64,000 nt of DNA from Eledone cirrhosa (GCA_964016885.1 OZ024740.1:34596001-34660000), one strand, 5' to 3'; shown: positions 1 to 63,243, numbered from the stretch's first letter. Notes: generated by a model not told the origin, from the letters alone. Numbers and translations: made by a program.

Positions 1-3000
1 CAACACTGTCACACTAATATATCTGTATTGTACCCTTTATCTGTTATATAGACTTCACAACACTGTCACAACTAATATATCTGTACTGTACCCTTTATCT
101 GTTATATAGACTTCACAACACTGTCACAACTAATATATCTGTATTGTACCCTTTATCTGTTATATAGACTTCACAACACTGTCACAACTAATATATCTGT
201 ATAGTACCCTTTATCTGTTATATAGACTTCACAACACTGTCACAACTAATATATCTGTATAGTACCCTTTATCTGTTATATAGACTTCACAACACTGTCA
301 CAACTAATATATCTGTATTGTACACTTAATCTGTTATATAAACTTCACAACACTGTCACAACTAATATATCTGTATAGTACCCTTTATCTGTTATATAGA
401 CTTCACAACACTGTCACAACAAATATATCTGTATAGTACCCTTTATCTGTTATATAGACTTCACAACACTGTCACAACTAATAATATATTGTACCCTTTA
501 TCTGTTATATAGACTTCACAACATTGTCACACTAATATATGTGTAGTGTACCCTTTATCTGTTATTTAGACTTCACAACACTGTCACAACTAATATATCT
601 GTATAGTACCCTTTATCTGTTATATAGACTTCACAACACTGTCACAACTAATATATCTGTATTGTACCCTTTATCTGTTATATAGACTTCACAACACTGT
701 CACAACTAATATATCTGTATTGTACCCTTTATCTGTTATATAGACTTCACAACACTGTCACAACTAATATATCTGTATAGTACCCTTTATCTGTTATATA
801 GACTTCACAACACTGTCACAACTAATATATCTGTATTGTACACATTATCTGTTATATAGACTTCACAACACTGTCACAACTAATATATCTGTATTGTACC
901 CTTTATCTGTTATATAGACTTCACAACACTGTCACAACTAATATATCTGTATTGTACCCTTTATCAGTTATATAGACTTCACAACACTGTCACAACTAAT
1001 ATATCTGTATTGTACACTTTATCTGTAATATAGACTTCACAACACTGTCACACTAATATACCTGTATAGTACCCTTTATCTGTTATATGGACTTCACAAC
1101 ACTGTCACAACTAATAATATCTGTATTGTACCCTTTATCTGTTATATAGACTTCACAACACTGTCACAACTAATATATCTGTATTGTACCCTTTATCTGT
1201 TATATAGACTTCACAACATTGTCACACTAATATATGTGTATTGTACCCTTTATCTGTTATATAGACTTCACAACACTGTCACAACTAATATATCTGTATA
1301 GTACACATTATCTGTTATATATACTTCACAACACTGTCACAACTAATATATCTGTATTGTACCCTTTATCTGTTATATAGACTTCACAACACTGTCACAA
1401 CTAATATATCTGTATAGTACCCTTTATCTGTTATATAGACTTCACAACACTGTCACAACTAATATATCTGTATTGTACACTTAATCTGTTATATAAACTT
1501 CACAACACTGTCACAACTAATATATCTGTATAGTACCCTTTATCTGTTATATAGACTTCACAACACTGTCACAACAAATATATCTGTATAGTACCCTTTA
1601 TCTGTTATATAGACTTCACAACACTGTCACAACTAATATATCTGTATTGTACCCTTTATCTGTTATATAGACTTCACAACACTGTCACACTAATATAGCT
1701 GTATTGTACCCTTTATCTGTTATATAGACTTCACAACATTGTCACACTAATATATCTGTATTGTACCCTTTATCTGTTATATAGACTTCACAACACTGTC
1801 ACAACTAATATATCTGTATTGTACCCTTTATCTGTTATATAGACTTCACAACACTGTCACAACTAATATATCTGTATTGTACACTTTATCTGTTATATAG
1901 ACTTCACAACACTGTCGCATTAATATATCTGTATTGTACCCTTTATCCGTTATATAGACTTCACAACACTGTCACAACTAATATATCTGTATTGTACCCT
2001 TTATCTGTTATATAAACTTCACAACACTGTCACAACTAATATATCTGTATTGTACCCTTTATCTGTTATATAGACTTCACAACATTTCACACTAATATAT
2101 GTGTATTGTACCCTTTATCTGTTATATAGACTTCACAACACTGTCACAACTAATATATCTGTATTGTACACTTAATCTGTTATATAAACTTCACAACACT
2201 GTCACAACTAATATATCTGTATAGTACCCTTTATCTGTTATATAGACTTCACAACACTGTCACAACAAATATATCTGTATAGTACCCTTTATCTGTTATA
2301 TAGACTTCACAACACTGTCACAACTAATATATCTGTATTGTACCCTTTATCTGTTATATAGACTTCACAACACTGTCACACTAATATATCTGTATTGTAC
2401 CCTTTATCTGTTATATAGACTTCACAACATTGTCACACTAATATATCTGTATTGTACCCTTTATCTGTTATATAGACTTCACAACACTGTCACAACTAAT
2501 ATATCTGTATTGTACCCTTTATCTGTTATATAGACTTCACAACACTGTCACAACTAATATATCTGTATTGTACCCTTTATCTGTTATATAGACTTCACAA
2601 CATTGTCACACTAATATATCTGTATTGTACCCTTTATCTGTTATATAGACTTCACAACACTGTCACTACTAATATATCTGTATTGAACCCTTTATCTGTT
2701 ATATAGACTTCACAACACTGTCACAACTAATATATCTGTATTGTACACTTTATCTGTTATATAGACTTCACAACACTGTCACACTAATATATCTGTATTG
2801 TACCCTTTATCTGTTATGGAGACTTCACAACACTGTCACAACTAATATATCTGTATTGTACCCTTTATCTGTTATATAGACTTCACAACACTGTCACAAC
2901 TAATATATCTGTATTGTACCCTTTATCTGTTATATAGACTTCACAACATTGTCACACTAATATATGTGTATTCTACCCTTTATCTGTTATTTAGACTTCA

Positions 3001-6000
3001 CAACACTGTCACAACAAATATATCTGTATAGTACCCTTTATCTGTTATATAGACTTCACAACACTGTCACAACTAATATATCTGTATTGTACCCTTTATC
3101 TGTTATATAGACTTCACAACACTGCCACACTAATACATCTGTATTGTACCCTTTATCTGTTATACAGACTTCACAACATTGTCACACTAATATATCTGTA
3201 TTGTACCCTTTATCTGTTATATAGACTTCACAACACTGTCACAACTAATATATCTGTATTGTACCCTTTATCTGTTATATAGACTTCACAACACTGTCAC
3301 AACTAATATATCTGTATTGTACCCTTTATCTGTTATATAGACTTCACAACATTGTCACACTAATATATGTGTATTGTACCCTTTATCTGTTATATAGACT
3401 TCATTACACTGTCACAACTAATATATCTGTATAGTACCCTTTATCTGTTATATAGACTTCACAACACTGTCACAACTAATATATCTGTATTGTACCCTTT
3501 ATCTGTTATATAGACTTCACAACACTGTCACAACTAATATATCTGTATAGTACCCTTTATCTGTTATATAGACTTCACAACACTGTCACAACTAATATAT
3601 CTGTATTGTACACTTAATCTGTTATATAAACTTCATAACACTGTCACAACTAATATATCTGTATAGTACCCTTTATCTGTTATATAGACTTCACAACACT
3701 GTCACAACAAATATATCTGTATAGTACCCTTTATCTGTTATATAGACTTCACAACACTGTCACAACTAATATATCTGTATTGTACCCTTTATCTGTTATA
3801 TAGACTTCACAACATTGTCACACTAATATATGTGTATTGTACCCTTTATCTGTTATTTAGACTTCACAACACTGTCACAACTAATATATCTGTATTGTAC
3901 ACTTAATCTGTTATATAAACTTCACAACACTGTCACAACTAATATATCTGTATAGTACCCTTTATCTGTTATATAGACTTCACAACACTGTCACAACAAA
4001 TATATCTGTATAGTACCCTTTATCTGTTATATAGACTTCACAACACTGTCACAACTAATATATCTGTATTGTACCCTTTATCTGTTATATAGACTTCACA
4101 ACACTGTCACACTAATATATCTGTATTGTACCCTTTATCTGTTATATAGACTTCACAACATTGTCACAATAATATATTTGTATTGTACCCTTTATCTGTT
4201 ATATAGACTTCACAACACTGTCACAACTAATATATCTGTATTGTACCCTTTATCTGTTATATAGACTTCACAACACTGTCACAACTAATATATCTGTATT
4301 GTACACTTTATCTGTTATATAGACTTCATAACACTGTCACAACTAATATATCTGTATTGTACCCTTTATCTGTTATATAGACTTCACAACACTGTCACAA
4401 CTAATATATCTGTATAGTACACTTTATCTGTTATATACACTTCACAACACTGTCACAACTAATATATCTGTATTGTACCCTTTATCTGTTATATAGACTT
4501 CACAACACTGTCACAACTAATATATCTGTATTATACACTTAATCTGTTATATAAACTTCACAACACTGTCACAACTAATATATCTGTATTGTACCCTTTA
4601 TCTGTTATATAGACTTCACAACATTGTCACACTAATATATGTGTATTGTACCCTTTATCTGTTATATAGACTTCACAACACTGTCACAACTAATATATCT
4701 GTATTGTACACTTAATCTGTTATATAAACTTCACAACACTGTCACAACTAATATATCTGTATAGTACCCTTTATCTGTTATATAGACTTCACAACACTGT
4801 CACAACAAATATATCTGTATAGTACCCTTTATCTGTTATATAGACTTCACAACACTGTCACAACTAATATATCTGTATTGTACCCTTTATCTGTTATATA
4901 GACTTCACAACACTGTCACACTAATATAGCTGTATTGTACCCTTTATCTGTTATATAGACTTCACAACATTGTCACACTAATATATCTGTATTGTACCCT
5001 TTATCTGTTATATAGACTTCACAACACTGTCACAACTAATATATCTGTATTGTACCCTTTATCTGTTATATAGACTTCACAACACTGTCACAACTAATAT
5101 ATCTGTATTGTACACTTTATCTGTTATATAGACTTCACAACACTGTCACACTAATATATCTGTATTGTACCCTTTATCCGTTATATAGACTTCACAACTC
5201 TGTCACAACTAATATATCTGTATTGTAACCTTTATCTGTTATATAAACTTCACAACACTGTCACAACTAATATATCTGTATTGTACCCTTTATCTGTTAT
5301 ATAGACTTCACAACACTGTCACACTAATATATCTGTATTGTACACTTTATCTGTTAGATAGACTTCACAACACTGTCACAACTAATATATCTGTATTGTA
5401 CACTTTATCTGTTATATAGACTTCACAACACTCTCACAACTAATATATCTGTATTGTACCCTTTATCTGTTATATAGACTTCACAACACTGTCACACTAA
5501 TATATCTGTATTGTACCCTTTATCTGTTATATAGACTTCACAACACTGTCACAACTAATATATCTGTATAGTACCCTTTATCTGTTATATAGACTTCACA
5601 ACACTGTCACAACTAATATATCTGTATAGTACCCTTTATCTGTTATATAGACTTCACAACACTGTCACAACTAATATATCTGTATTGTACACTTAATCTG
5701 TTATATAAACTTCACAACACTGTCACAACTAATATATCTGTATAGTACCCTTTATCTGTTATATAGACTTCACAACACTGTCACAACAAATATATCTGTA
5801 TAGTACCCTTTATCTGTTATATAGACTTCACAACACTGTCACAACTAATAATATATTGTACCCTTTATCTGTTATATAGACTTCACAACATTGTCACACT
5901 AATATATGTGTAGTGTACCCTTTATCTGTTATTTAGACTTCACAACACTGTCACAACTAATATATCTGTATAGTACCCTTTATCTGTTATATAGACTTCA

Positions 6001-9000
6001 CAACACTGTCACAACTAATATATCTGTATTGTACCCTTTATCTGTTATATAGACTTCACAACACTGTCACAACTAATATATCTGTATTGTACCCTTTATC
6101 TGTTATATAGACTTCACAACACTGTCACAACTAATATATCTGTATAGTACCCTTTATCTGTTATATAGACTTCACAACACTGTCACAACTAATATATCTG
6201 TATTGTACACATTATCTGTTATATAGACTTCACAACACTGTCACAACTAATATATCTGTATTGTACCCTTTATCTGTTATATAGACTTCACAACACTGTC
6301 ACAACTAATATATCTGTATTGTACCCTTTATCAGTTATATAGACTTCACAACACTGTCACAACTAATATATCTGTATTGTACACTTTATCTGTTATATAG
6401 ACTTCACAACACTGTCACACTAATATACCTGTATAGTACCCTTTATCTGTTATATGGACTTCACAACACTGTCACAACTAATAATATCTGTATTGTACCC
6501 TTTATCTGTTATATAGACTTCACAACACTGTCACAACTAATATATCTGTATTGTACCCTTTATCTGTTATATAGACCTCACAACATTGTCACACTAATAT
6601 ATGTGTATTGTACCCTTTATCTGTTATATAGACTTCACAACACTGTCACAACTAATATATCTGTATAGTACACATTATCTGTTATATATACTTCACAACA
6701 CTGTCACAACTAATATATCTGTATTGTACCCTTTATCTGTTATATAGACTTCACAACACTGTCACAACTAATATATCTGTATAGTACCCTTTATCTGTTA
6801 TATAGACTTCACAACACTGTCACAACTAATATATCTGTATTGTACACTTAATCTGTTATATAAACTTCACAACACTGTCACAACTAATATATCTGTATAG
6901 TACCCTTTATCTGTTATATAGACTTCACAACACTGTCACAACAAATATATCTGTATAGTACCCTTTATCTGTTATATAGACTTCACAACACTGTCACAAC
7001 TAATATATCTGTATTGTACCCTTTATCTGTTATATAGACTTCACAACACTGTCACACTAATATAGCTGTATTGTACCCTTTATCTGTTATATAGACTTCA
7101 CAACATTGTCACACTAATATATCTGTATTGTACCCTTTATCTGTTATATAGACTTCACAACACTGTCACAACTAATATATCTGTATTGTACCCTTTATCT
7201 GTTATATAGACTTCACAACACTGTCACAACTAATATATCTGTATTGTACACTTTATCTGTTATATAGACTTCACAACACTGTCGCACTAATATATCTGTA
7301 TTGTACCCTTTATCCGTTATATAGACTTCACAACACTGTCACAACTAATATATCTGTATTGTACCCTTTATCTGTTATATAAACTTCACAACACTGTCAC
7401 AACTAATATATCTGTATTGTACCCTTTATCTGTTATATAGACTTCACAACATTTCACACTAATATATGTGTATTGTACCCTTTATCTGTTATATAGACTT
7501 CACAACACTGTCACAACTAATATATCTGTATTGTACACTTAATCTGTTATATAAACTTCACAACACTGTCACAACTAATATATCTGTATAGTACCCTTTA
7601 TCTGTTATATAGACTTCACAACACTGTCACAACAAATATATCTGTATAGTACCCTTTATCTGTTATATAGACTTCACAACACTGTCACAACTAATATATC
7701 TGTATTGTACCCTTTATCTGTTATATAGACTTCACAACACTGTCACACTAATATATCTGTATTGTACCCTTTATCTGTTATATAGACTTCACAACATTGT
7801 CACACTAATATATCTGTATTGTACCCTTTATCTGTTATATAGACTTCACAACACTGTCACAACTAATATATCTGTATTGTACCCTTTATCTGTTATATAG
7901 ACTTCACAACACTGTCACAACTAATATATCTGTATTGTACCCTTTATCTGTTATATAGACTTCACAACATTGTCACACTAATATATCTGTATTGTACCCT
8001 TTATCTGTTATATAGACTTCACAACACTGTCACTACTAATATATCTGTATTGAACCCTTTATCTGTTATATAGACTTCACAACACTGTCACAACTAATAT
8101 ATCTGTATTGTACACTTTATCTGTTATATAGACTTCACAACACTGTCACACTAATATATCTGTATTGTACCCTTTATCTGTTATATAGACTTCACAACAC
8201 TGTCACAACTAATATATCTGTATTGTACCCTTTATCTGTTATATAGACTTCACAACACTGTCACAACTAATATATCTGTATTGTACCCTTTATCTGTTAT
8301 ATAGACTTCACAACATTGTCACACTAATATATGTGTATTCTACCCTTTATCTGTTATTTAGACTTCACAACACTGTCACAACTAATATATCTGTATAGTA
8401 CCCTTTATCTGTTATATAGACTTCACAACACTGTCACAACTAATATATCTGTATTGTACCCTTTATCTGTTATATAAACTTAACAACACTGTCACAACTA
8501 ATATATCTGTATTGAACCCTTTATCTGTTATATAGACTTCACAACACTGTCACAACTAATATATCTGTATTGTACACTTAATCTGTTATATAAACTTCAC
8601 AACACTGTCACAACTAATATATCTGTATAGTACCCTTTATCTGTTATATAGACTTCACAACACTGTCACAACAAATATATCTGTATAGTACCCTTTATCT
8701 GTTATATAGACTTCACAACACTGTCACAACTAATATATCTGTATTGTACCCTTTATCTGTTATATAGACTTCACAACACTGCCACACTAATACATCTGTA
8801 TTGTACCCTTTATCTGTTATACAGACTTCACAACATTGTCACACTAATATATCTGTATTGTACCCTTTATCTGTTATATAGACTTCACAACACTGTCACA
8901 ACTAATATATCTGTATTGTACCCTTTATCTGTTATATAGACTTCACAACACTGTCACAACTAATATATCTGTATTGTACCCTTTATCTGTTATATAGACT

Positions 9001-9660
9001 TCACAACATTGTCACACTAATATATGTGTATTGTACCCTTTATCTGTTATATAGACTTCATTACACTGTCACAACTAATATATCTGTATAGTACCCTTTA
9101 TCTGTTATATAGACTTCACAACACTGTCACAACTAATATATCTGTATTGTACCCTTTATCTGTTATATAGACTTCACAACACTGTCACAACTAATATATC
9201 TGTATAGTACCCTTTATCTGTTATATAGACTTCACAACACTGTCACAACTAATATATCTGTATTGTACACTTAATCTGTTATATAAACTTCATAACACTG
9301 TCACAACTAATATATCTGTATAGTACCCTTTATCTGTTATATAGACTTCACAACACTGTCACAACAAATATATCTGTATAGTACCCTTTATCTGTTATAT
9401 AGACTTCACAACACTGTCACAACTAATATATCTGTATTGTACCCTTTATCTGTTATATAGACTTCACAACATTGTCACACTAATATATGTGTATTGTACC
9501 CTTTATCTGTTATTTAGACTTCACAACACTGTCACAACTAATATATCTGTATTGTACACTTAATCTGTTATATAAACTTCACAACACTGTCACAACTAAT
9601 ATATCTGTATAGTACCCTTTATCTGTTATATAGACTTCACAACACTGTCACAACAAATAC
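1..9660. repeat. Higher-order duplication inside the 58-bp array, offset 5367 bp (5657 bp after a 5-monomer indel)
   Basis: Rare markers recur at a constant offset of 5367: ataatatatt 481/5848, ttatcagtta 961/6328, gtcgca 1914/7281, ttctaccc 2971/8338. Further markers recur at 5657 (5367+290): gccacac 3124/8781, cttcataac 3631/9288. Confidence 0.9.
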
Positions 9661-12600
9661 ATCTGTATAGTACCCTTTATCTGTTATATAGACTTCACAA
9701 CACTGTCACAACTAATATATCTGTATTGTACACTTTATCTGTTATATAGACTTCACAACACTGTCACACTAATATATCTGTATTGTACCCTTTATCCGTT
9801 ATATAGACTTCACAACACTGTCACAACTAATATATCTGTATTGTACCCTTTATCTGTTATATAGACTTCACAACACTGTCACAACTAATATATCTGTATT
9901 GTAACCTTTATCTGTTATATAGACTTCACAACATTTCACACTAATATATGTGTATTGTACCCTTTATCTGTTATATAGACTTCACAACACTGTCACAACT
10001 AATATATCTGTATTGTACACTTAATCTGTTATATAAACTTCACAACACTGTCACAACTAATATATCTGTATAGTACCCTTTATCTGTTATATAGACTTCA
10101 CAACACTGTCACAACAAATATATCTGTATAGTACCCTTTATCTGTTATATAGACTTCACAACACTGTCACAACTAATATATCTGTATTGTACCCTTTATC
10201 TGTTATATAGACTTCACAACACTGTCACACTAATATATCTGTATTGTACCCTTTATCTGTTATATAGACTTCACAACACTGTCACAACTAATATATCTGT
10301 ATTGTACCCTTTATCTGTTATATAGACTTCACAACACTGTCACAACTAATATATCTGTATTGTACCCTTTATCTGTTTTATAGACTTCACAACATTGTCA
10401 CACTAATATATCTGTATTGTACCCTTTATCTGTTATATACACTTCACAACACTGTCACAACTAATATATCTGTATTGTACCCTTTATCTGTTATATAGAC
10501 TTCACAACATTGTCACACTAATATATGTGTATTGTACCCTTTATCTGTTATTTAGACTTCACAACACTGTCACAACTAATATATCTGTATAGTACCCTTT
10601 ATCTGTTATATAGACTTCACAACACTGTTACAACTAATATATCTGTATTGTACCCTTTATCTGTTATATAAACTTCACAACACTGTCACAACTAATATAT
10701 CTGTATTGAACCCTTTATCTGTTATATAGACTTCACAACACTGTCACAACAAATATATCTGTATAGTACCCTTTATCTGTTATATAGACTTCACAACACT
10801 GTCATAACTAATGTATCTGTATTGTTCCCTTTATCTGTTATATAGACTTCACAACACTGTCACACTAATATATCTGTATTGTACCCTTTATCTGTTATAT
10901 AGACTTCACAACATTGTCACACTAATATATCTGTATTGTACCCTTTATCTGTTATATAGACTTCAAAACACTGTCACAACTAATATATCTGTATAGTACC
11001 CTTTATCTGTTATATAGACTTCACAACACTGTCACAACTAATATATCTGTATTGTACCCTTTATCTGTTATATAGACTTCACAACACTGTCACAACTAAT
11101 ATATCTGTATTGAACCCTTTATCTGTTATATAGACTTCACAACACTGTCACAACAAATATATCTGTATAGTACCCTTTATCTGTTATATAGACTTCACAA
11201 CACTGTCACAACTAATATATCTGTATTGTACCCTTTATCTGTTATATAGACTTCACAACATTGTCACACTAATATATCTGTATTGTACCCTTTATCTGTT
11301 ATATAGACTTCACAACACTGTCACAACTAATATATCTGTATTGTACCCTTTATCTGTTATATAGACTTCACAACACTGTCACAACTAATATATCTGTATT
11401 GTACCCTTTATCTGTTATATAGACTTCACAACACTGTCACACTAATATACCTGTATAGTACCCTTTATCTGTTATATAGACTTCACAACACTGTCACAAC
11501 TAATATATCTGTATTGTACCCTTTATCTGTTATATAGACTTCACAACACTGTCACAACTAATATATCTGTATTGTACCCTTTATCTGTTATATAGACTTC
11601 ACAACACTGTCACAACTAATATATCTGTATTGTACCCTTTATCTGTTATATAGACTTCACAACACTGTCACAACTAATATATCTGTATTGTACACTTTAT
11701 CTGTTATATAGACTTCACAACACTGTCACACTAATATACCTGTATAGTACCCTTTATCTGTTATATAGACTTCACAACACTGTCACAACTAATATATCTG
11801 TATTGTACCCTTTATCTGTTATATAGACTTCACAACACTGTCACAACTAATATATCTGTATTGTACCCTTTATCTGTTAAATAGACTTCACAACATTGTC
11901 ACACTAATATATGTGTATTGTACCCTTTATCTGTTATATAGATTTCACAACACTGTCACAACTAATATATCTGTATAGTACCCTTTATCTGTTATATAGA
12001 CTTCACAACACTGTCACAACAAAATATATCTGTATTGTACCCTTTATCTGTTATATAGACTTCACAACACTGTCACAACTAATATATCTGTATAGTACCC
12101 TTTATCTGTTATATAGACTTCACAACACTGTCACAACTAATATATCTGTATTGTACACTTTATCTGTTATATAGACTTCACAACACTGTCACACTAATAT
12201 ACCTGTATAGTACCCTTTATCTGTTATATGGACTTCACAACACTGTCACAACTAATATATCTGTATTGTACCCTTTATCTGTTATATAGACTTCACAACA
12301 CTGTCACAACTAATATATCTGTATTGTACCCTTTATCTGTTATATAGACTTCACAACATTGTCACACTAATATATGTGTATTGTACCCTTTATCTGTTAT
12401 ATAGACTTCACAACTCTGTCACAACTAATATATCTGTATAGTACACTTTATCTGTTATATACACTTCACAACACTGTCACAACTAATATATCTGTATTGT
12501 ACCCTTTATCTGTTATATAGACTTCACAACACTGTCACAACTAATATATCTGTATAGTACCCTTTATCTGTTATATAGACTTCACAACACTGTCACAACT

Positions 12601-12799
12601 AATATATCTGTATTGTACACTTAATCTGTTATATAAACTTCACAACACTGTCACAACTAATATATCTGTATAGTACCCTTTATCTGTTATATAGACTTCA
12701 CAACACTGTCACAACAAATATATCTGTATAGTACCCTTTATCTGTTATATAGACTTCACAACACTGTCACAACTAATATATCTGTATTGTACCCTTTAT

Positions 12800-15700
12800 C
12801 TGTTATATAGACTTCACAACACTGTCACAACTAATATATCTGTATTGTACACTTTATCTGTTATATAGACTTCACAACACTGTCACACTAATATATCTGT
12901 ATTGTACCCTTTATCCGTTATATAGACTTCACAACACTGTCACAACTAATATATCTGTATTGTACCCTTTATCTGTTATATAGACTTCACAACACTGTCA
13001 CAACTAATATATCTGTATTGTACCCTTTATCTGTTATATAGACTTCACAACATTTCACACTAATATATGTGTATTGTACCCTTTATCTGTTATATAGACT
13101 TCACAACACTGTCACAACTAATATATCTGTATTGTACACTTAATCTGTTATATAAACTTCACAACACTGTCACAACTAATATATCTGTATAGTACCCTTT
13201 ATCTGTTATATAGACTTCACAACACTGTCACAACAAATATATCTGTATAGTACCCTTTATCTGTTATATAGACTTCACAACACTGTCACAACTAATATAT
13301 CTGTATTGTACCCTTTATCTGTTATATAGACTTCACAACACTGTCACACTAATATATCTGTATTGTACCCTTTATCTGTTATATAGACTTCACAACACTG
13401 TCACAACTAATATATCTGTATTGTACCCTTTATCTGTTATATAGACTTCACAACACTGTCACAACTAATATATCTGTATTGTACCCTTTATCTGTTATAT
13501 AGACTTCACAACATTGTCACACTAATATATCTGTATTGTACCCTTTATCTGTTATATAGACTTCACAACACTGTTACAACTAATATATCTGTATTGTACC
13601 CTTTATCTGTTATATAAACTTCACAACACTGTCACAACTAATATATCTGTATTGAACCCTTTATCTGTTATATAGACTTCACAACACTGTCACAACAAAT
13701 ATATCTGTATAGTACCCTTTATCTGTTATATAGACTTCACAACACTGTCATAACTAATGTATCTGTATTGTTCCCTTTATCTGTTATATAGACTTCACAA
13801 CACTGTCACACTAATATATCTGTATTGTACCCTTTATCTGTTATATAGACTTCACTACACTGTCACACTAATATATCTGTATTGTACCCTTTATCTGTTA
13901 TATAGACTTCACAACATTGTCACACTAATATATCTGTATTGTACCCTTTATCTGTTATATAGACTTCAAAACACTGTCACAACTTATATATCTGTATAGT
14001 ACCCTTTATCTGTTATATAGACTTCACAACACTGTCACAACTAATATATCTGTATTGTACCCTTTATCTGTTATATAGGCTTCACAACACTGTCACACTA
14101 ATATATCTGTAATGTACACTTTATCTGTTATATACACTTCACAACACTGTCACAACTAATATATCTTTATAGTACCCTTTAACTGTTATATAGACTTCAC
14201 AACACTGTCACAACTAATATATCTGTATTGTACCCTTTATCTGTTATATGGACTTCACAACACTGTCACAACTAATATACCTGTATTGTACCTTTATCTG
14301 TTATATAGACTTCACAACGTTGTCACACTAATATATCTGTATTGTAACCTTTATCTGTTATATAGACTTCACTACACTGTCACAACTAATATATCTGTAT
14401 AGTACCCTTTATCTGTTATATAGACTTCACAACACTGTCACAACTAATATATCTGTATTGTACCCTTTATCTGTTATATAGACTTCACAACACTGTCACA
14501 ACTAATATATCTGTATAGTACCCTTTATCTGTTATATAGACTTCACAACACTGTCATAACTAATATATCTGTATTTGTACACTTAATCTGTTATATAAAC
14601 TTCACAACACTGTCACAACTAATATATCTGTATTGTACCCTTTATCTGTTATATAGACTTCACAACACTGTCACACTAATATAGCTGTATTGTACCCTTT
14701 ATCTGTTACATAGACTTCACAACATTGTCACACTAATATATCTGTATTCTACCCTTTATCTGTTATATAGACTTCACAACACTGTCACAACTAATATATC
14801 TGTATTGTTCCCTTTATCTGTTATATAGACTTCACAACACTGTCACAACTAATATATCTGTATTGTACCCTTTATCTGTTATATAGACTTCACGACATTG
14901 TCACACTAATATATCTGTATTGTACCCTTTATCTGTTATATAGACTTCACAACACTGTCACAACTAATATATCTGTATTGTACCCTTTATCTGTTATATA
15001 GACTTCACAACACTGTCACAACTAATATATCTGTATTGTACCCTTTATCTGTTATATAGACTTCACAACACTGTCACAACTAATATATCTGTATTGTACC
15101 CTTTATCTGTTATATAGACTTCACAACATTTCACACTAATATATGTGTGTTGTACCCTTTATCTGTTACATAGACTTCACAACACTGTCACAACTAATAT
15201 ATCTGTATAGTACCCTTTATCTGTTATATAGACTTCACAACATTGTCACACTAATATATCTGTATTGTACCCTTTATCTGTTATATAGACTTCAAAACAC
15301 TGTCACAACTTATATATCTGTATAGTACCCTTTATCTGTTATATAGACTTCACAACACTGTCACAACTAATATATCTGTATTGTACCCTTTATCTGTTAT
15401 ATAGGCTTCACAACACTGTCACACTAATATATCTGTAATGTACACTTTATCTGTTATATACACTTCACAACACTGTCACAACTAATATATCTTTATAGTA
15501 CCCTTTAACTGTTATATAGACTTCACAACACTGTCACAACTAATATATCTGTATTGTACCCTTTATCTGTTATATGGACTTCACAACACTGTCACAACTA
15601 ATAAACCTGTATTGTACCTTTATCTGTTATATAGACTACACAACGTTGTCACACTAATATATCTGTATTGTACCCTTTAACTGTTATATAGACTTCACAA

Positions 15701-46113: not shown

Positions 46114-46129
46114 CAAGAGATATGTATTG

Positions 46130-46284: not shown

Positions 46285-46286
46285 AT

Positions 46287-49600: not shown

Positions 49601-52600
49601 TCTATTGGATGGTTTCTTGTACCTACCATCGACACAGGAAGTAAATCTATTGGATGTTTTATTGTACCTACCACTGATACAGGAAGTAAATCTATTGGAT
49701 GGTTTCTTGTAACTTGCAATGACTCAGGAAGTAGAAACTATTGGATGGGTTTCTTGTACCAACCACTGACACAGGAAGCAAATATATTGGATGGTTTCTT
49801 GTACCTACCACTGACACAGGAAGTAAATCTATTGGATGGTTTCTTGTACCAACCACTTACACAGGAAGTAAAAACTATTCGATGGTTTCTTGTAACTATG
49901 ATTGGTAGAGGAAGTAAAATCTATTGGATAGTTTCTTGTAACGACCACTGACACTGGTAGTAAAACTTATGGGATGGTTTCTTGTAACTTTTAATGACAC
50001 AGGAAGTAAAAGTATTGGATAGTATCTTGTAACTACCACTGACAGAGGAACTAAAAATTATTGGATTGTTTCAATAACACAGGAAGTAATTACTATTGGA
50101 TGGTTTCTTGTAACTTGCAATGACACAGGAAGTAAATACTATTAGATGGTTTCTTGTAACTACCACTGTCACAGGAATTAAAATATATTGGATGGTTTCT
50201 TGTAACTTGCAATGACACAGGAAGTAAAATCTATCGGATGGTTTCTTGTACCTACCACTGACACAGGAAGTAAATCCATTGGATGGTTACTTGTAACTAC
50301 CACTGACACTGGAAGTAAATCTATTGGATGTTTCTTGTAACTACCACTGACACTGGAAGTAAATCTATTGGATGTTTCTTGTAACTACCACTGACACTGG
50401 AAGTAAATCTATTGGATGGTTTCTTGTAACTATCACTGAAACAGGAAGTAAATCTATTGGATGGTTTTTTGTAACACCACTGACACAGGAAGTAAATCTA
50501 TTGGATGGTTTCTTGTAACTATCACTGAAACAGGAAGTAAATCTATTGGATGGTTTTTTGTAACACCACTGACACAGGAAGTAAATCTATTGGATGGTTT
50601 CTTGTAACTATCACTGAAACAGGAAGTAAATCTATTGGATGGTTTCTTGTAACTATCACTGAAACAGGAAGTAAATCTATTGGATGGTTTTTTGTAACAC
50701 CACTGTCACAGGAAGTAAAATCTATTGGATGGTTTCTTTTACCAACCACTGACACAGGAAGTAAAAACAATTGGATGGTTTCTTGTAACTACCACTGACA
50801 CAGGAAGTAAAAACTATGGGATGGTTTCTTGTGCCTTGTAATGACACAGGAAGTAAATCAATTGGATGGTTTCTTGTATCTACCACTGACACAGGTAGTA
50901 AATATATTGGATGGTTTCTTGTAACAACCACTGACACAGGAAGTAAAATATATTGGATGGTTTCTTGTAACTACCACTGACACAGGAAGTAAAAATTATT
51001 GGATTGTTTCTTGTAATCTTCAATGAAACAGGAAGTAAAAAGTATTGGATGGTTTCTTGTAACTTGCAATGACACAGGAAGTAAAAACTATTGGATGGTT
51101 CCTTTTAACTACCACTGACACAGGAAGTAAATCTATTGGATGGTTTCTTGTAACTTGCAATGACACAGGAAGTAAAAACTATTGGATGGTTTCTTGTACC
51201 TACCACTGACACAGGAAATAAATCTATTGGATGGTTTCTTGTACCTACCATAGAGGCAGGAAGTAAAATCTATTGGATGGTTTCTTGTACCTACCACTGA
51301 CACAGGAAGTAAATATATTGGATCGTTTCATGTACCAATCACTGACACAGGAAGTAAAAACTATTGGATGGTTTCTTGTAACTACCACTGACACAGGAAG
51401 TAAAAACTATTGGATGGTTTCTTGTAACTTGTAATGACACAGGAAGTAAAAGTATTGGATCGTTTCTTGTACTAACCACTGACACAGGAAGTAAAAACTA
51501 TTGGATGGTTACTTGTACCTATCACTGACACAGGAATTAAAATATATTGGATGGTTTCTTGTAACTTGCAATGACACAGGAAGTAAATCTATTGGATGTT
51601 TTCATGTACCTACCACAAACACAGGAAGTAAATCTATTGGATAGTTTCTTGTACCTACCACTGACACAGGAAGTAAATCTATTGGATGGTTTCTTGTTCC
51701 TACCACTGACACAGGAAGTAAATCTGTTGGATGGTTCCTCGTAACTTGCAATGACACAGGAAGTAAAAACTATTGGATGGTTTCTTGTACCTACCACTGA
51801 CACAGGAAATAAATCTATTGGATGGTTTCTTGTACCTACCATAGAGGCAGGAAGTAAAATCTATTTGATGGTTTCTTGTACCTACCACTGTCACAGGAAG
51901 TAAATCCATTGGATGGTTTCTTGTAACTACCACTGGCACAGGAAGTAAATCTATTGAATGGTTTCTTGTAACTACCACTGACACTGGAAGTAAATCTATT
52001 GGATGGTTTCTTGTAACTACCACTGACACTCGATGTAAATCTATTGGATGTTTTCTTGCAACTACCACTGACACAGGAAGTAAATCTATTGGATGGTTTC
52101 TTGTAGCACCATTGTCACAGGAAGTAAAATCTATTGGATCGTTTCTTTTACCAACCACTGACACAGGACGTAAAATCTATTGGATGGTTTCTTGTAACTA
52201 CCACTGACACAGGAAGTAAAAACTATTGGATGGTTTCTTGTAACTTGTAATGTCACAGGAAGTAAGAATATTGGATCTTTACTTGTACCAACCACTGACA
52301 CAGGAAGTAAAAAACTATTGGATGGTTACTTGTATCTACCACTGACACAGTAATTAAAATATATTGGATGTTTTCTTGTAACTACCACTGACACAGGAAG
52401 TAAATCTATTGGATGGTTTCTTATACCTACCACTGACACAGGAAGTAAATCTATTGGATTGTTTCTTGTACCTACCACTGACACAGGAAGTAAATATATT
52501 GGATGGTTTCTTGTACCTACCACTGACACAGGTAGTAAATATATTGGATGGTTTCTTGTACCTACCACTGACACAGGAAGTAAAATATATTGGATGGTTT

Positions 52601-55600
52601 CTTGTAACTTGCAATGACACAGGAAGTAAATACTATTAGATGGTTCCTTGTAACTACCACTGACACAGGAATTAAAATATATTGGATGGTTCCTTGTAAC
52701 TTGCAATGACACAGGAAGTAAATACTATTGGATGGTTTCTTGTAACTACCACTGAAAACAGGATGTAAAAATTATTAGATGGTTCCTTGTAACTACCACT
52801 GACACAGGAATTAAAATATATTGGATGGTTTCTTGTAACTTGCAATGACACAGGAAGTAAAAATTATTGGATTGTTTCTTGTAATTTTCAATGAAACAGG
52901 AAGTAAAAAGTATTGGATGGTTTCTTGTAACTTGCAATGACACAGGAAGTAAAAACTATTGGATGGTTCCTTCTAACTACCACTGACACAGGAAGTAAAT
53001 CTATTGGATGGTTTCTTGTAACTTGCAATGACACAGGAAGTAAAAACTATTGGATGGTTTCTTGTACCTACCACTGACACAGGAAATAAATCTATTGGAT
53101 GGTTTCATGTACCTACCATAGAGGCAGGAAGTAAAATCTATTGGATGGTTTCTTGTACCTACCACTGACACAGGAAGTAAATATATTGGATCGTTTCTTG
53201 TACCAATCACTGACACAGGAAGTAAAAACTATTGGATGGTTTCTCGTAACTACCACTGACACAGGAAGTAAAAACTATTGGATGGTTTCTTGTAACTTGT
53301 AATGACACAGGAAGTAAAAGTATTGCATCGTTTCTTGTACCGACCACTGACACAGGAAGTAAAAACTATTGGATGGTTACTTGTGCCTACCACTGACACA
53401 GGAATTAAAATATGTTGGATGGTTTCTTGTAACTTGCAATGACACAGGAAGTAAATCTATTGGATGTTTTCTTGTACCTACCACTAACACAGGAAGTAAA
53501 TCTATTGGATTGTTTCTTGTACCTACCACTGACACAGGAAGTAAATCTATTGGATGATTTCTTGTTCCTACCACTGACACAGGAAGTAAATCTATTGGAT
53601 GGTTCCTCGTAACTTGCAATGACACAGGAAGTAAAAACTATTGGATGGTTTCTTGTACCTACCACTGACACAGGAAATAAATCTATTGGATGGTTTCTTG
53701 TACCTACCATAGAGGCAGGAAGTAAAATCTATTTGATGGTTTCTTGTACCTACCACTGACACAGGAAGTAAATCCATTGGATGGTTTCTTGTAACTACCA
53801 CTGGCACAGGAAGTAAATCTATTGAATGGTTTCTTGTAACTACCACTGACACTGGAAGTAAATCTATTGGATAGTTTCTTGTAACTACCACTGAAACAGG
53901 AAGTAAATCTATTGGATGGTTTCTTGTACCACCATTGTCACAGGAAGTAAAATCTATTGGATGGTTTCTTGTACCTTCCACTGTCACAGGAAGTAAAATC
54001 TATTGGATGGTTTCTTGTACATACCACTGACACAGGAAATAAATCTATTGGATGGTTTCTTGTACCTACCATAGAGGCAGGAAGTAAAATCTATTTGATG
54101 GTTTCTTGTACCTACCACGGACACAGGAAGTAAATCCATTGGATGGTTTCTTGTAACTACCACTGGCACAGGAAGTAAATCTATTGAATGGTTTCTTGTA
54201 ACTACCACTGACACTGGAAGTAAATCTATTGGATAGTTTCTTGTAACAACCACTGACACAGGAAGTAAAAACTATTGGATGGTTTCTTGTAACTTGTAAT
54301 GACACAGGAAGGAAGAGTATTGGATCTTTACTTGTACCAACCACTGACACAGGAAGTAAATAACTTTGGATGGTTACTTGTACCTACCACTGACACAGTA
54401 ATTAAAATATATTGGATGGTTTCTTGTAACTTGCAATGACACAGGAAGTAAATCTATTGGATGGTTTCTTGTATCTACCACTGACACAGGAAGTAAATCT
54501 ATTGGATGGTTTCTTGTACCTACCACTGACACAGGAAGTAAAAACTATTGGATGGTTTCTTGTAACTACCACTGACACAGGAAGTAAAAACTATTGGATG
54601 GTTTCTTGTAACTACCACTGACACAGGAAGTAAAAACTATTGGATGGTTTCTTGTAACTTGTAATGACACAGGAAGTAAATCTATTGGATGGTTTCTTGT
54701 ACCTACCACTGACACAGGAAGTAAATCTATTGGATGGTTTCTTGTATTTACCACTGACACAGGAAGTAAATATATTGGATGGTTTCTTGTACCTACCACT
54801 GACACAGGAAGTAAAATATATTGGATGGTTTCTTGTAACTTGCAATGACACAGGAAGTAAATACTATTGGATGGTTTCTTGTAACTACCACTGACACAGG
54901 AAGTAAATCTATTGGATGGTTTCTTGTACCTACCACTGACACAGGAAGTAAATCTATTGGATGGTTTCTTGTACCTACCACTGACACAGGAAGTAAATAC
55001 TATTGGATGGTTTCTTGTAACTACCACTGACACAGGAAGTAAATCTATTGGATGGTTTCTTGTACCTACCACTGACACAGGAAGTAAATCTATTGGATGG
55101 TTTCTTGTATTTACCACTGACACAGGAAGTAAATATATTGGATGGTTTCTTGTACCTACCACTGACACAGGAAGTAAAATATATTGGATGGTTTCTTGTA
55201 ACTTGCAATGACACAGGAAGTAAAAACTATTAGATGGTTCCTTGTAACTACCACTGACAGAGGAACTAAAAATTATTGGATTGCTTCAATAACACAGGAA
55301 ATAATTATTATTGGATGGTTTCTTGTACCACCACTGTCACAGGAATTAAAATCTATTGGATCGTTTCTTGTACCAATCACTGACACAGGAAGTAAAAACT
55401 ATTGGATGGTTTCTTGTAACTTGTAATGACACAGGAAGCAAAATTATTGGATCGCTTCTTGTACCAACCACTGACACAGGAAGTAAAAACTATTGGATGG
55501 TTACTTGTACCTACCACTGACACAGGAATTAAAATATATTGGATGGTTTCTTGTAACTTGCAATGACACAGGAAGTAAATCTATTGGATGGTTACTTGTA

Positions 55601-58600
55601 CCTACCACTGACACAGGAAGTAAAAACTATTAGATGGTTCCTTGTAACTACCACTGACACAGGAAGTAAATCTGTTGGATGGTTCCTCGTAACTTGCAAT
55701 GACACAGGAAGTAAAAACTATTGGATGGTTTCTTGTACCTACCACTGACACAGGAAATAAATCTATTAGATGGTTTCTTGTACCTACCATAGAGGCAGGA
55801 AGTAAAATCTATTTGATGGTTTCTTGTACCTACCACTGTCACAGGAAGTAAATCCATTGGATGGTTTCTTGTAACTACCACTGGCACAGGAAGTAAATCT
55901 ATTGAATGGTTTCTTGTAACTACCACTGACACTGGAAGTAAATCTATTGGATGGTTTCTTGTAACTACCACTGACACTCGATGTAAATCTATTGGATGGT
56001 TTCTTGTAACTACCACTGACACAGGAAGTAAATCTATTGGATGGTTTCTTGTAGCACCATTGTCACAGGAAGTAAAATCTATTGGATCGTTTCTTTTACC
56101 AACCACTGACACAGGAAGTAAAATATATTGGATGTTTTCTTGTAACTACCACTGACACAGGAAGTAAATCTATTGGATGGTTTCTTGTAGCACCATTGTC
56201 ACAGGAAGTAAAATCTATTGGATCGTTTCTTTTACCAACCACTGACACAGGAAGTAAAATCTATTGGATGGTTTCTTGTAACTACCACTGGCACAGGAAG
56301 TAAATCTATTGAATGGTTTCTTGTAACTACCACTGACACTGGAAGTAAATCTATTGGATGGTTTCTTGTAACTACCACTGACACTCGATGTAAATCTATT
56401 GGATGGTTTCTTGTAACTACCACTGACACAGGAAGTAAATCTATTGGATGGTTTCTTGTAGCACCATTGTCACAGGAAGTAAAATCTATTGGATCGTTTC
56501 TTTTACCAACCACTGACACAGGAAGTAAAATCTATTGGATGTTTTCTTGTAACTACCACTGACACAGGAAGTAAATCTATTGGATGGTTTCTTGTAGCAC
56601 CATTGTCACAGGAAGTAAAATCTATTGGATCGTTTCTTTTACCAACCACTGACACAGGAAGTAAAATCTATTGGATGGTTTCTTGTAACTACCACTGACA
56701 CAGGAAGTAAATCTATTGGATGGTTTCTTGTAACTACCACTGACACAGGAAGTAAATCTATTGGATGGTTTCTTGTAACTACCACTGACACAGGAAGTAA
56801 ATCTATTGGATGGTTTCTTATACCTACCACTGACACAGGAAGTAAATCTATTGGATGGTTTCTTGTACCTACCACTGGCACAGGAAGTAAATATATTGGA
56901 TGGTTTCTTGTATCTACCACTTACACAGGAAGTAAATCTATTGGATGGTTTCTTGTAACTACCACTAACACAGGAAGTAAATCTATTGGATGGTTTCTTG
57001 TAACTATCACTGAAACAGGAAGTAAATCTATTGTATGGTTTCTTGTAACTACCACTGACACAGGAAGTAAAATCTATTGGATCGTTTCTTTTACCAACCA
57101 CTGACACAGGAATTAAAAACTATTGAATGGTTTCTTGTAACTACCACTGACACAGGAAGTAAAAACTATGGGATGGTTTGTTGTACCTTGTAATGACACA
57201 GGAAGTAAATCAATTGGATGGTTTCTTGTACCTACCACTGACACAAGAAGTAAATCTATTGAATGGTTTCTTGTACCTACCACTGACACAGGAAGTAAAT
57301 ATATTGGATGGTTTCTTGTACCTACCACTGACACAGGAATTAAAATATATTGGATGGTTTCTTGTAACTTGCAATGACACAGGAAGTAAATACTATTGGA
57401 TGGTTTCTTGTAACTACCATTGACACAGGAAGTAAAAACTATTAGATGGTTCCTTGTAACTACCACTGACACAGGAATTAAAATATATTGGATGGTTTCT
57501 TGTAACTTGCAATGACACAGGAAGTAAAAATTATTGGATTGTTTCTTGTAATTTTCAATGAAACAGGAAGTAAAAAGTATTGGATGGTTTCTTGTAACTT
57601 GCAATGACACAGGAAGTAAAAATTATTGGATTGTTTCTTGTAATTTTCAATGAAATAGGAAGTAAAAAGTATTGGATGGTTTCTTGTAACTTGCAATGAC
57701 ACAGGAAGTAAAAACTATTGGATGGTTCCTTCTAACTACCACTGACACAGGAAGTAAATCTATTGGATGGTTTCTTGTAACTTGCAATGACACAGGAAGT
57801 AAAAACTATTGGATGGTTTCTTGTACCTACCACTGACACAGGAAATAAATCTATTGGATGGTTTCTTGTACCTACCATAGAGGCAGGAAGTAAAATCTAT
57901 TGGATGGTTTCTTGTAACTACCACTGACACAGGATGTAAATATATTGCATCGTTTCTTGTACCAATCACTGACACAGGAAGTAAAAACTATTGGATGGTT
58001 TCTTGTAACTACCACTGACACAGGAAGTAAAAACTATTGGATGGTTTCTTGTAACTTGTAATGACACAGGAAGTAAAAGTATTGCATCGTTTCTTGTACC
58101 GACCACTGACACAGGAAGTAAAAACTATTGGATGGTTACTTGTACCTACCACTGACACAGGAATTAAAATATGTTGGATGGTTTCTTGTAACTTGCAATG
58201 ACACAGGATGTAAATCTATTGGATGTTTTCTTGTACCTACCACTAACACAGGAACTAAATCTATTGGATTGTTTCTTGTACCTACCACTGACACAGGAAG
58301 TAAATCTATTGGATGATTTCTTGTTCCTACCACTGACACAGGAAGTAAATCTATTGGATGGTTCCTCGTAACTTGCAATGACACAGGAAGTAAAAACTAT
58401 TGGATGGTTTCTTGTACCTACCACTGACAGGAAATAAATCTATTGCATGGTTTCTTGTACCTACCATAGAGGCAGGAAGTAAAATCTATTTGATGGTTTC
58501 TTGTACCTACCACTGACACAGGAAGTAAATCCATTGGATTGTTTCTTGTAACTACCACTGGCACAGGAAGTAAATCTATTGAATGGTTTCTTGTAACTAC

Positions 58601-61600
58601 CACTGACACTGGAAGTAAATCTATTGGGTGGTTTCTTGTAACTACCACTGAAACAGGAAGTAAATCTATTGGATGGTTTCTTGTACCACCATTGTCACAG
58701 GAAGTAAAATCTATTGGATCGTTTCTTTTACCAACCACTGACACAGGAAGTAAAATCTATTGGATGGTTTCTTGTAACAACCACTGACACAGGTAGTAAA
58801 AACTATTGGATGGTTTCTTGTAACTTGTAATGACACAGGAAGGAAGAGTATTGGATCTTTACTTGTACCAACCACTGACACAGGAAGTAAAAAACTATTG
58901 GATGGTTACTTGTAACTACCACTGACACAGTAATTAAAATATATTGGATGGTTGCTTGTAACTTGCAATGACACAGGAAGCAAATCTATTGGATGGTTTC
59001 TTGTACCTACCACTGACACAGGAAGTAAAAACTATTGGATGGTTTCTTGTAACTACCACTGACACAGGAAGTAAAAACTATTGGATGGTTTCTTGTAACT
59101 ACCACTGACACAGGAAGTAAAAACTATTGGATGGTTTCTTGTACCAACCACTGACACAGGAAGTAAAAACTATTGGATGGTTTCTTGTACCTACCACTGA
59201 CACAGGAAGTAAATATATTGGATGGTTTCTTGTACCTACCACTGACACAGGAAGTAAATATATTGGATGGTTTCTTGTACCTACCACTGACACAGGAAGT
59301 AAAATATATTGGATGGTTTCTTGTAACTTGCAATGACACAGGAAGTAAAAACTATTAGATGGTTCCTTGTAACTACCACTGACAGAGGAACTAAAAATTA
59401 TTGGATTGCTTCAATAACACAGGAAATAATTATTATTGGATGGTTTCTTGTACCACCACTGTCACAGGAATTAAAATCTATTGGATCGTTTCTTGTACCA
59501 ATCACTGACACAGGAGGTAAAAACTATTGGATGGTTTCTTGTAACTTGTAATGACACAGGAAGCAAAATTATTGGATCGTTTCTTGTACCAACCACTGAC
59601 ACAGGAAGTAAAAACTATTGGATGGTTTCTTGTACCTACCACTGACACAGGAATTAAAATATATTGGATGGTTTCTTGTAACTTGCAATGACACAGGAAG
59701 TAAATCTATTGGATGGTTACTTGTACCTACCACTGACACAGGAAGTAAAAACTATTAGATGGTTCCTTGTAACTACCACTGACACAGGAAGTAAATCTTT
59801 TGGATGGTTTCTTGTACCAAGCACTGATACAGGAATTAAATGTAATGGATGGTTTCTTGTACCAACCACTGACACAGGAAGTAAATCTATTGGATGGTTT
59901 CTTGTACCTTCCACTGTCACAGGAAGTAAATCTATTGGATGGTTTCTTGTAACTATCACTGAAACAGGAAGTAAATCTATTGTATGGTTTCTTGTAACTA
60001 CCACTGACACAGGAAGTAAAATCTATTGGATCGTTTCTTTTACCAACCACTGACACAGGAATTAAAAACTATTGAATGGTTTCTTGTAACTACCACTGAC
60101 ACAGGAAGTAAAAACTATGGGATGGTTTGTTGTACCTTGTAATGACACAGGAAGTAAATCAATTGGATGGTTTCTTGTACCTACCACTGACACAAGAAGT
60201 AAATCTATTGAATGGTTTCTTGTACCTACCACTGACACAGGAAGTAAATATATTGGATGGTTTCTTGTACCTACCACTGACACAGGAATTAAAATATATT
60301 GGATGGTTTCTTGTAACTTGCAATGACACAGGAAGTAAATACTATTGGATGGTTTCTTGTAACTACCATTGACACAGGAAGTAAAAACTATTAGATGGTT
60401 CCTTGTAACTACCACTGACACAGGAATTAAAATATATTGGATGGTTTCTTGTAACTTGCAATGACACAGGAAGTAAAAATTATTGGATTGTTTCTTGTAA
60501 TTTTCAATGAAACAGGAAGTAAAAAGTATTGGATGGTTTCTTGTAACTTGCAATGACACAGGAAGTAAAAATTATTGGATTGTTTCTTGTAATTTTCAAT
60601 GAAATAGGAAGTAAAAAGTATTGGATGGTTTCTTGTAACTTGCAATGACACAGGAAGTAAAAACTATTGGATGGTTCCTTCTAACTACCACTGACACAGG
60701 AAGTAAATCTATTGGATGGTTTCTTGTAACTTGCAATGACACAGGAAGTAAAAACTATTGGATGGTTTCTTGTACCTACCACTGACACAGGAAATAAATC
60801 TATTGGATGGTTTCTTGTACCTACCATAGAGGCAGGAAGTAAAATCTATTGGATGGTTTCTTGTAACTACCACTGACACAGGATGTAAATATATTGCATC
60901 GTTTCTTGTACCAATCACTGACACAGGAAGTAAAAACTATTGGATGGTTTCTTGTAACTACCACTGACACAGGAAGTAAAAACTATTGGATGGTTTCTTG
61001 TAACTTGTAATGACACAGGAAGTAAAAGTATTGCATCGTTTCTTGTACCGACCACTGACACAGGAAGTAAAAACTATTGGATGGTTACTTGTACCTACCA
61101 CTGACACAGGAATTAAAATATGTTGGATGGTTTCTTGTAACTTGCAATGACACAGGATGTAAATCTATTGGATGTTTTCTTGTACCTACCACTAACACAG
61201 GAACTAAATCTATTGGATTGTTTCTTGTACCTACCACTGACACAGGAAGTAAATCTATTGGATGGTTCCTCGTAACTTGCAATGACACAGGAAGTAAAAA
61301 CTATTGGATGGTTTCTTGTACCTACCACTGACAGGAAATAAATCTATTGCATGGTTTCTTGTACCTACCATAGAGGCAGGAAGTAAAATCTATTTGATGG
61401 TTTCTTGTACCTACCACTGACACAGGAAGTAAATCCATTGGATTGTTTCTTGTAACTACCACTGGCACAGGAAGTAAATCTATTGAATGGTTTCTTGTAA
61501 CTACCACTGACACTGGAAGTAAATCTATTGGGTGGTTTCTTGTAACTACCACTGAAACAGGAAGTAAATCTATTGGATGGTTTCTTGTACCACCATTGTC

Positions 61601-63243
61601 ACAGGAAGTAAAATCTATTGGATCGTTTCTTTTACCAACCACTGACACAGGAAGTAAAATCTATTGGATGGTTTCTTGTAACAACCACTGACACAGGTAG
61701 TAAAAACTATTGGATGGTTTCTTGTAACTTGTAATGACACAGGAAGGAAGAGTATTGGATCTTTACTTGTACCAACCACTGACACAGGAAGTAAAAAACT
61801 ATTGGATGGTTACTTGTAACTACCACTGACACAGTAATTAAAATATATTGGATGGTTGCTTGTAACTTGCAATGACACAGGAAGCAAATCTATTGGATGG
61901 TTTCTTGTACCTACCACTGACACAGGAAGTAAAAACTATTGGATGGTTTCTTGTAACTACCACTGACACAGGAAGTAAAAACTATTGGATGGTTTCTTGT
62001 AACTACCACTGACACAGGAAGTAAAAACTATTGGATGGTTTCTTGTACCAACCACTGACACAGGAAGTAAAAACTATTGGATGGTTTCTTGTACCTACCA
62101 CTGACACAGGAAGTAAATATATTGGATGGTTTCTTGTACCTACCACTGACACAGGAAGTAAATATATTGGATGGTTTCTTGTACCTACCACTGACACAGG
62201 AAGTAAAATATATTGGATGGTTTCTTGTAACTTGCAATGACACAGGAAGTAAAAACTATTAGATGGTTCCTTGTAACTACCACTGACAGAGGAACTAAAA
62301 ATTATTGGATTGCTTCAATAACACAGGAAATAATTATTATTGGATGGTTTCTTGTACCACCACTGTCACAGGAATTAAAATCTATTGGATCGTTTCTTGT
62401 ACCAATCACTGACACAGGAGGTAAAAACTATTGGATGGTTTCTTGTAACTTGTAATGACACAGGAAGCAAAATTATTGGATCGTTTCTTGTACCAACCAC
62501 TGACACAGGAAGTAAAAACTATTGGATGGTTTCTTGTACCTACCACTGACACAGGAATTAAAATATATTGGATGGTTTCTTGTAACTTGCAATGACACAG
62601 GAAGTAAATCTATTGGATGGTTACTTGTACCTACCACTGACACAGGAAGTAAAAACTATTAGATGGTTCCTTGTAACTACCACTGACACAGGAAGTAAAT
62701 CTTTTGGATGGTTTCTTGTACCAAGCACTGATACAGGAATTAAATGTAATGGATGGTTTCTTGTACCAACCACTGACACAGGAAGTAAATCTATTGGATG
62801 GTTTCTTGTACCTTCCACTGTCACAGGAAGTAAATCTATTGGATGGTTTCTTGTACCTTCCACTGTCACAGGAAGTAAATCTATTGGATGGTTTCTTGTA
62901 CCAACCACTGATACAGGAAGTAAATCTATTGGATGGTTTCTTGTAACTTGCAATGACACAGGAAGTAAATCTATTGGATGGTTTCTTGTACCTTCCACTG
63001 TCACAGGAAGTAAATCTATTGGATGGTTTCTTGTACCAACCACTGACACAGGAAGTAAATCTATTGGATGGTTTCTTGTACCTTCCACTGTCACAGGAAG
63101 TAAATCTATTGGATGGTTTCTTGTACCAACCACTGACGCAGGAAGTTAATCTATTGGATGGTTTCTTGTACCTACCACTGATACAGGAAGTAAAATCTAT
63201 TGGGTAGTTTCTTGTAACTATGATTGGTACAGGAAGTAAAAAC
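46688..63243. repeat. 45-47-bp satellite/minisatellite tandem array (about 360 monomers), complete within the window
   Basis: Monomer ggaagtaaatctattggatggtttcttgtacctaccactgacaca (45 nt, 40% GC). 46- and 47-nt forms arise from the A-run (gtaaaatct, gtaaaaact). The central module varies (cctaccact / actaccact / ccaaccact / acttgcaat). Confidence 0.99.
56970..62850. repeat. Near-perfect tandem duplication of 2949/2904 bp in the 45-bp array
   Basis: Markers at offset 2949: taactatcactgaaac 57001/59950 and pseudo-ORFs 57113/60062, 57760/60709. Markers at offset 2904 (one 45-mer lost): 58418/61322, 59333/62237 and ccttccactg 59907/62811. Confidence 0.92.

Follow-up and report, generated by a model that had tools for sequence, protein, structure and literature searches.

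The window, the whole 64,000-nucleotide stretch of Eledone cirrhosa DNA analysed here, holds an ABCB1/P-glycoprotein-like exon between two long tandem arrays, array A on its left and array B on its right (Table 1). The exon corresponds to residues 580-633 of the Octopus sinensis protein P0001, where nucleotide-binding domain 1 ends, with 45/54 identities to domain 1 and 25/54 to domain 2. It also matches residues 577-628 of human ABCB1, the end of domain 1, in the ABCB1/ABCB4 structures. Human ABCB1 has a counterpart exon of equal length with the same boundaries. Among the best of 8,000 scored candidates, O. sinensis (83%) and O. bimaculoides (81%) lead and Argonauta hians comes fourth (78%), and the top three named matches of its kind are all octopods (83, 81 and 78%), which points to a host that is probably an octopod-like cephalopod. 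Judged from its sequence, this is a real-looking, conserved exon that would belong to an ABCB1/P-glycoprotein full transporter. In the same comparison set, a 38-aa segment of the O. sinensis protein (residues 338-375) is missing from all three O. bimaculoides ABCB1 models, P0002, P0122 and P0123, and is probably an exon missed in that assembly.

No other plus-strand exon of the ABCB1 gene was found within the window. Neither neighbouring exon falls in it; that the arrays are intronic we infer from the splice sites of this one exon, and they would occupy two consecutive introns, each seen in part only.

Table 1. Features of the window, with positions counted from its first nucleotide.
Feature	Position	Strand	Basis or remark
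Array A (58-bp tandem, 802 units, single orientation)	1..46113	+	open at left edge of window
Young layer, array A	1..24437	+	identity to consensus 0.95-0.98; near-exact duplications of kb scale frequent
Tandem duplication, 2.8 kb, array A	24438..30069	+	2 mismatches in 2,824 bp
Old layer, array A	30070..46113	+	~0.85-0.89 identity to consensus; few exact twins
Unique presumed intron end with pyrimidine-rich AG acceptor, 196 bp	46114..46309	+	sequence
ABCB1/P-glycoprotein-like exon, 162 bp, phase 0	46310..46471	+	open frame, AG before, GT donor after
Unique presumed intron start, 216 bp	46472..46687	+	sequence
Array B (45/46-bp tandem, 365 units, single orientation)	46688..63243	+	
Tandem duplication, 2.9 kb, array B	56969..62855	+	0 mismatches over 1,347 + 1,626 bp, offset by one unit
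Degenerate 4-bp microsatellite	63327..63403	.	TRF
High-copy dispersed repeat, 3' tail, ending in 3-bp and 4-bp microsatellites	63530..63603	+	contig depth
Inverted, probably truncated Walker-A exon copy (nucleotide-binding domain 1), 94 nt	63604..63697	-	residues 413-443 of P0001
Intron sequence upstream of the inverted copy, with its acceptor	63698..63761	-	two contig versions, ~95% alike

TRF reported array A as a single 58-bp array of 801 copies and array B as a single 45-bp array of 365 copies at 46688-63216, whose last partial unit extends to 63243. Most of the array A units are 58 bp (607) or 57 bp (138) long; 342 of them are distinct, and the unit at 116-173 equals the consensus. For array B, the predicted 45-mer held as a tandem family but not as a single length, since its 365 units (197 distinct) mix 45-bp (166) and 46-bp (165) forms. 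GC content ranges from 0.28 to 0.38, at ~30% in array A and ~37% in array B. A search of 45500-64000 against Rfam gave no match, and neither did exact scans of metagenomes with a single motif from each unit, metagenomes being uninformative for an animal genome. Both arrays are most likely functionless.

The separation of the two repeats was counted using 12-mers with at most one mismatch to each unit consensus, on both strands of the whole window. On the plus strand, 35,570 of 35,588 matches to the 58-mer lay left of the exon, with 18 isolated matches to its right, and 10,989 of 10,991 matches to the 45-mer lay right of it, with 2 to its left. On the reverse strand there was no match to the 58-mer and a single match to the 45-mer, at 63652, outside both arrays. 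The longest run free of unit-like 12-mers was 46 bp in array A and 31 bp in array B; therefore neither array contains an insertion or inversion. As predicted, the 58-mer and the 45-mer keep to opposite sides of the exon, neither array is inverted anywhere along its length, and a conserved-looking ABCB1 exon divides two arrays that do not mix. The switch had also been placed exactly at the exon; here the exon sits in a unique island of 574 bp, with 196 bp and 216 bp of unique presumed intron flanking it. The predicted absence of transposon insertions holds inside the arrays. Within 0.5 kb past 63243, a high-copy repeat tail and an inverted copy of an ABCB1 exon sit just beyond array B, so that the right intron is not pure satellite.

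Young and old layers in the arrays

Block duplications were located by k-mer diagonals. Array A contains 15 near-exact duplications of at least 600 bp, the longest of 3,847 bp with 5 mismatches, and array B contains 7 of at least 300 bp. Identity to the array A consensus is 0.95-0.98 as far as ~24 kb and 0.85-0.91 from 26 kb onward. The young layer of array A shows duplication lags of 2.1, 4.1, 5.4 and 6.2 kb, its old layer carries a recurrent 47-bp deletion variant, and the 2.8-kb duplication between them contains the young/old boundary twice.

Units with an exact twin were counted after the second copies of large duplications had been dropped, which kept 547/802 units in array A and 300/365 in array B. 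In the two bins of array A nearest the exon, 13/54 and 10/52 units had an exact twin, compared with 73/96, 45/53 and 58/71 in the young layer. Twins were as few in the bin at 33000-36193 (10/57) as in the exon-adjacent bins; the gradient in array A is a step between two layers with no smooth slope. In neither array are the units independent of one another. From the exon outward, array B gave 3/67, 30/66, 71/94, 41/65 and, in the last bin, 4/8. Its first 3 kb are almost without exact twins, and its far end has no frozen zone of comparable length. On both sides, the least homogenised units face the exon and the recent kb-scale duplications lie farther off. Such an age pattern is consistent with arrays that grew by local unequal exchange while their exon ends stayed frozen.

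In satellite arrays generally, the centre is homogenised better than the ends, according to the available part of a review (PMC5615363). The exon-proximal ends studied here follow that rule; unlike such arrays, array B is young at its far end and array A is divided into a discrete young layer and an older one (PMC5615363). Because array ends homogenise less at any boundary, as the same available text describes (PMC5615363), low homogenisation beside the exon does not show a selected barrier. What suggests selection at the exon is the long twin-free zone at the exon end of array B compared with its far end, and a recent cut of array B by a later rearrangement could also explain why that far end is young.

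Several of the kb-scale duplications have only 0-5 mismatches, and the very young ones could be assembly errors. An assembly artefact, with arrays lengthened by false duplications or with pieces wrongly joined at the island or within array B, would account for them, and we consider it very unlikely as an explanation of the locus. The window contains no N, array B shares 50-mers unbroken throughout 50.7-62.8 kb, and the array edges fade gradually into unique sequence. Three sequencing runs of one sample contain 0.56-0.76 of the words sampled from 45900-46900, and in one contig from such data the repeat tail runs into the inverted exon just as it does in the window. Moreover, false duplications alter lengths, not layout.

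Some further properties of the arrays were recorded. The single AG-bearing motif of the array A unit is present in 341/424 young-layer units and 5/280 old-layer units, and the GC skew of array A on the sense strand is -0.42 to -0.61. The longest stop-free stretches in the arrays are 187, 41, 187 and 239 codons.

The junctions between array B units read AG, three letters, GT on the sense strand, with both AG and GT kept in 274/364. This arrangement would be expected if array B were a chain of cloned 42-43-nt introns split by 3-nt exons. The donor G, at a conservation of 0.85, however, falls below the median column (0.96), the triplet is identical in 337/364 junctions and the longest intact run is 18. 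Because this pattern is opposite to that of selection on splice sites with variable exons, we find a cloned-intron chain barely credible. If array B is intronic, as presumed, its junctions offer hundreds of potential cryptic splice sites. Donor-like motifs in array A number 2 on the plus strand against 149 on the minus strand, and acceptor-like motifs in array B 6 against 208. We do not claim an avoidance of splice signals on the sense strand from these counts, as array B has 482 GTAA on the plus strand and each array is one independent draw.

A repeat tail and an inverted exon copy beyond array B

Between 63530 and 63600, summed contig depth rises to 11,645, compared with ~6-9 for single contigs nearby, and the contigs have many different flanks. 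We take this repeat to be a SINE/LINE-like tail. Directly abutting it, an inverted exon copy of 31 residues was compared with PDB and with the collected ABCB1 proteins. Read from 63697 to 63604, it is identical to P0001 at 22/31 residues of domain 1 and 17/31 of domain 2. The copy faces the plus-strand exon across array B and ends after 94 nt at a microsatellite. It is probably truncated and a probable pseudo-exon. The missing remainder of the exon was sought across the repeat tail with an 11-residue profile, and the best score there was -7.0 (17-38 for true segments), a value reached by 156/300 shuffles. A candidate remainder at 63276 scored -10.4 and was rejected.

Three minor features involve this region. 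The plus strand at 46270-46302, in the presumed intron just ahead of the exon, and the minus strand at 63264-63294, in unique sequence past array B, share a 33-nt inverted similarity of 82%, in low-complexity sequence, whose score is reached by 11/1,000 shuffles. A short direct repeat of ~20 bp lies at 63440-63490, in low-copy sequence between the degenerate microsatellite and the repeat tail, and a perfect 4-bp microsatellite of 16 copies lies at 63810-63873.

We compared 63404-63805 with three public contig sets, each from a run of the same sample, and with a RAD-seq run, which covered essentially only the high-copy tail. In a 193-bp contig with a depth of 13.5-15.5, the repeat tail and the inverted exon are connected in the same way as in the window; the contig forks into two versions at 63661. 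Two further contigs have another letter at 63636, with summed depths of 18.0, 17.6 and 12.3 that equal the remainder at 63618. As the window's letter at 63618 is absent from these depth sums, the contigs may come from another individual. One of the two further contigs, 313 bp long, matches 63605-63687 at 79/83 positions; at 63605 it departs from the window, and the 230 letters that follow do not resemble it.

Among the matches listed, the one sample therefore holds four versions of the Walker-A exon, two joined to the tail and two not. Both tail-joined versions have T27K just after the Walker-A motif, and one of them has a stop at codon 13. The two others have the canonical serine at codon 21, one of them with I15V and T14I; H3S occurs in one version, unassigned to type. 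Four versions in one sample require at least two loci, if the sample is diploid. The simplest reading of these sequences would be that the gene has a working Walker-A exon at another place and that the copy here is a recent duplicate, inverted and truncated.

Two domain-1 exons of ABCB1 that face each other, with the inverted one broken, might also mark the whole locus as a rearranged dead duplicate. There would then be a fold-back junction at ~63.3-63.6 kb, the plus-strand gene would end after array B, the exon would be unselected and array B would not be intronic. The plus-strand exon, however, has an open frame and both splice sites. Equally, the four Walker-A versions, which make two diploid loci among the matches listed, amount to one working gene and the broken copy; a further working gene would predict more than four, unless identical copies had collapsed. 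A dead duplicate is consequently an improbable account of the locus.

Origin and growth of the arrays

The original prediction had each intron amplifying its own local seed. Amplification is evident from the kb-scale near-exact duplications; no seed was found in the unique flanks (best match of the unit profiles 1.7 bits), and none when the exons and their flanks were compared with the arrays for exon-derived units (best blastn 24.3 bits).

An independent origin of the two units, also predicted, was not shown. Units A and B share a 10-bp motif, CACTG(T/A)CACA, in the same orientation. In circular alignments of the array A consensuses, the score against the 45-bp consensus was reached by 5/300 and 3/300 dinucleotide shuffles and that against the 46-bp consensus by 83/300 and 97/300, in eight comparisons without correction. 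The motif and the 45-bp alignment, marginally above shuffles, would be explained if both arrays went back to a single ancestral unit and had drifted apart on the two sides of an exon that blocked homogenisation. Against this stand the result for the 46-bp consensus, profile searches between the arrays that gave at best 7.2 bits for A in B (E 0.07) and 3.6 bits for B in A, and a simple local alignment of the two units whose score 53/500 shuffles reach. We regard common descent of the units as doubtful.

The units may instead be genome-wide satellite or transposon-derived families that landed in the introns and then expanded, in which case nothing about them would be private or locally seeded. 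The failure to find a local seed agrees with this, as does the presence of high-copy dispersed repeats in the genome, exemplified by the tail at 63530-63603. Octopus genomes are about two-thirds repeat according to the available text of PMC13282606, which points the same way. There is no direct counter-evidence; the old layer beside the exon implies long residence and is silent on origin. A genome-wide source is a possibility to be taken seriously, though an unlikely one.

The reading to which we give a probability of about 0.55 is that two consecutive ABCB1-like introns were each inflated by a tandem repeat, in layered growth with the exon end frozen. Each array would have grown where it stands: misaligned units would have undergone unequal exchange or slipped during replication, so that blocks of 1-100 units were copied. 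Since exchange depends on homology to both sides, an island of 574 bp of unique sequence would keep arrays A and B unmixed. Growth in place and separation by an island both follow from standard tandem-repeat theory. Events that extended into the island would be purged because the exon or its splice sites would be lost or doubled, and the oldest units would thereby be left beside the exon and newer layers farther away. The broken exon copy past array B, derived from an earlier exon of ABCB1, would stem from a separate, recent inverted duplication and most likely lies in the same intron.

Comparison with other repeat-filled introns

Intron-confined satellite growth between exons is already described in birds (PMC12954441). 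In the 'sequence stuttering' of chicken dot-chromosome genes, as presented in the available text of Hron et al. 2026 (PMC12954441), each intron has its own motifs, tens to hundreds of bases long, that have expanded locally; the blocks are isolated in single introns, do not cross exons and remain strictly local between conserved exons. Stuttering there concerns imperfect tandems on GC-rich dot chromosomes, with length polymorphism shown, and in that text the authors only speculate on the mechanism, which they link to high GC (PMC12954441). The spans between exon and stutter measure 112-23,555 bp (median 1,751), and copies of exon edges occur occasionally (PMC12954441). Like those genes, the E. 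cirrhosa locus has introns (inferred) filled by tandem motifs of tens of bp, and its repeat blocks stay on one side of the single visible exon. It differs from the chicken genes as described (PMC12954441) in being AT-rich (GC 0.28-0.38), invertebrate and built of regular units, in the larger size of its arrays (at least 46 kb and 16.6 kb) and, compared with some stutters, in that the search with exons and flanks yielded no exon-derived unit. What is new here is that the exon-proximal units are the least homogenised and that an inverted, truncated ABCB1 exon copy lies beyond array B.

Similar introns have been described in other genomes. In the accessible portion of Beauclair et al. 2019 (PMC6792250), avian GC-rich 'hidden' genes have introns made solely of tandem motifs, with several motif types per gene; this resembles the composition found here, whereas those motifs are short, G-rich and G-quadruplex-forming and the genes span a few kb. 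A zebra finch preprint describes dot-chromosome euchromatin as minisatellite-rich in its available part (10.1101/2025.10.14.682431). The testis-specific fertility genes kl-3 and kl-5 of the heterochromatic Drosophila Y have megabase introns of 5-bp satellites, shown to be transcribed, as given in the available text of Fingerhut et al. 2019 (PMC6508621). As in kl-3 and kl-5, a conserved exon is embedded here in almost pure tandem repeat; unlike them, the units measure 58 and 45/46 bp, array B spans 16.6 kb and array A at least 46 kb, and transcription is shown only for Drosophila (PMC6508621).

In a literature search, mostly without subscription papers and with supplements excluded, we found no paper on intron-specific satellites in cephalopods, which does not establish their absence from print. 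The main text of two cephalopod genome papers (PMC13282606 and PMC13218726) has no use of 'satellite' or 'intron' at the start of a word. Generality cannot be shown from one locus, and it is a speculative, rather unlikely extension that the cephalopod lineage enlarges many genes through intron-specific satellites layered away from frozen exon islands, as an AT-rich counterpart of avian stuttering on a scale of tens of kilobases. If true, intron-confined expansion would need neither high GC nor G-quadruplexes, and a non-transposon route would be added to those leading to large cephalopod genes. An AT-rich invertebrate locus whose regular units can be put in order of age would be a clean system for testing exons as selected barriers. 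This ABCB1 locus is also hard to assemble and annotate, as over 62 kb of satellite surround an exon of 162 bp and an antisense probable pseudo-exon lies close by.
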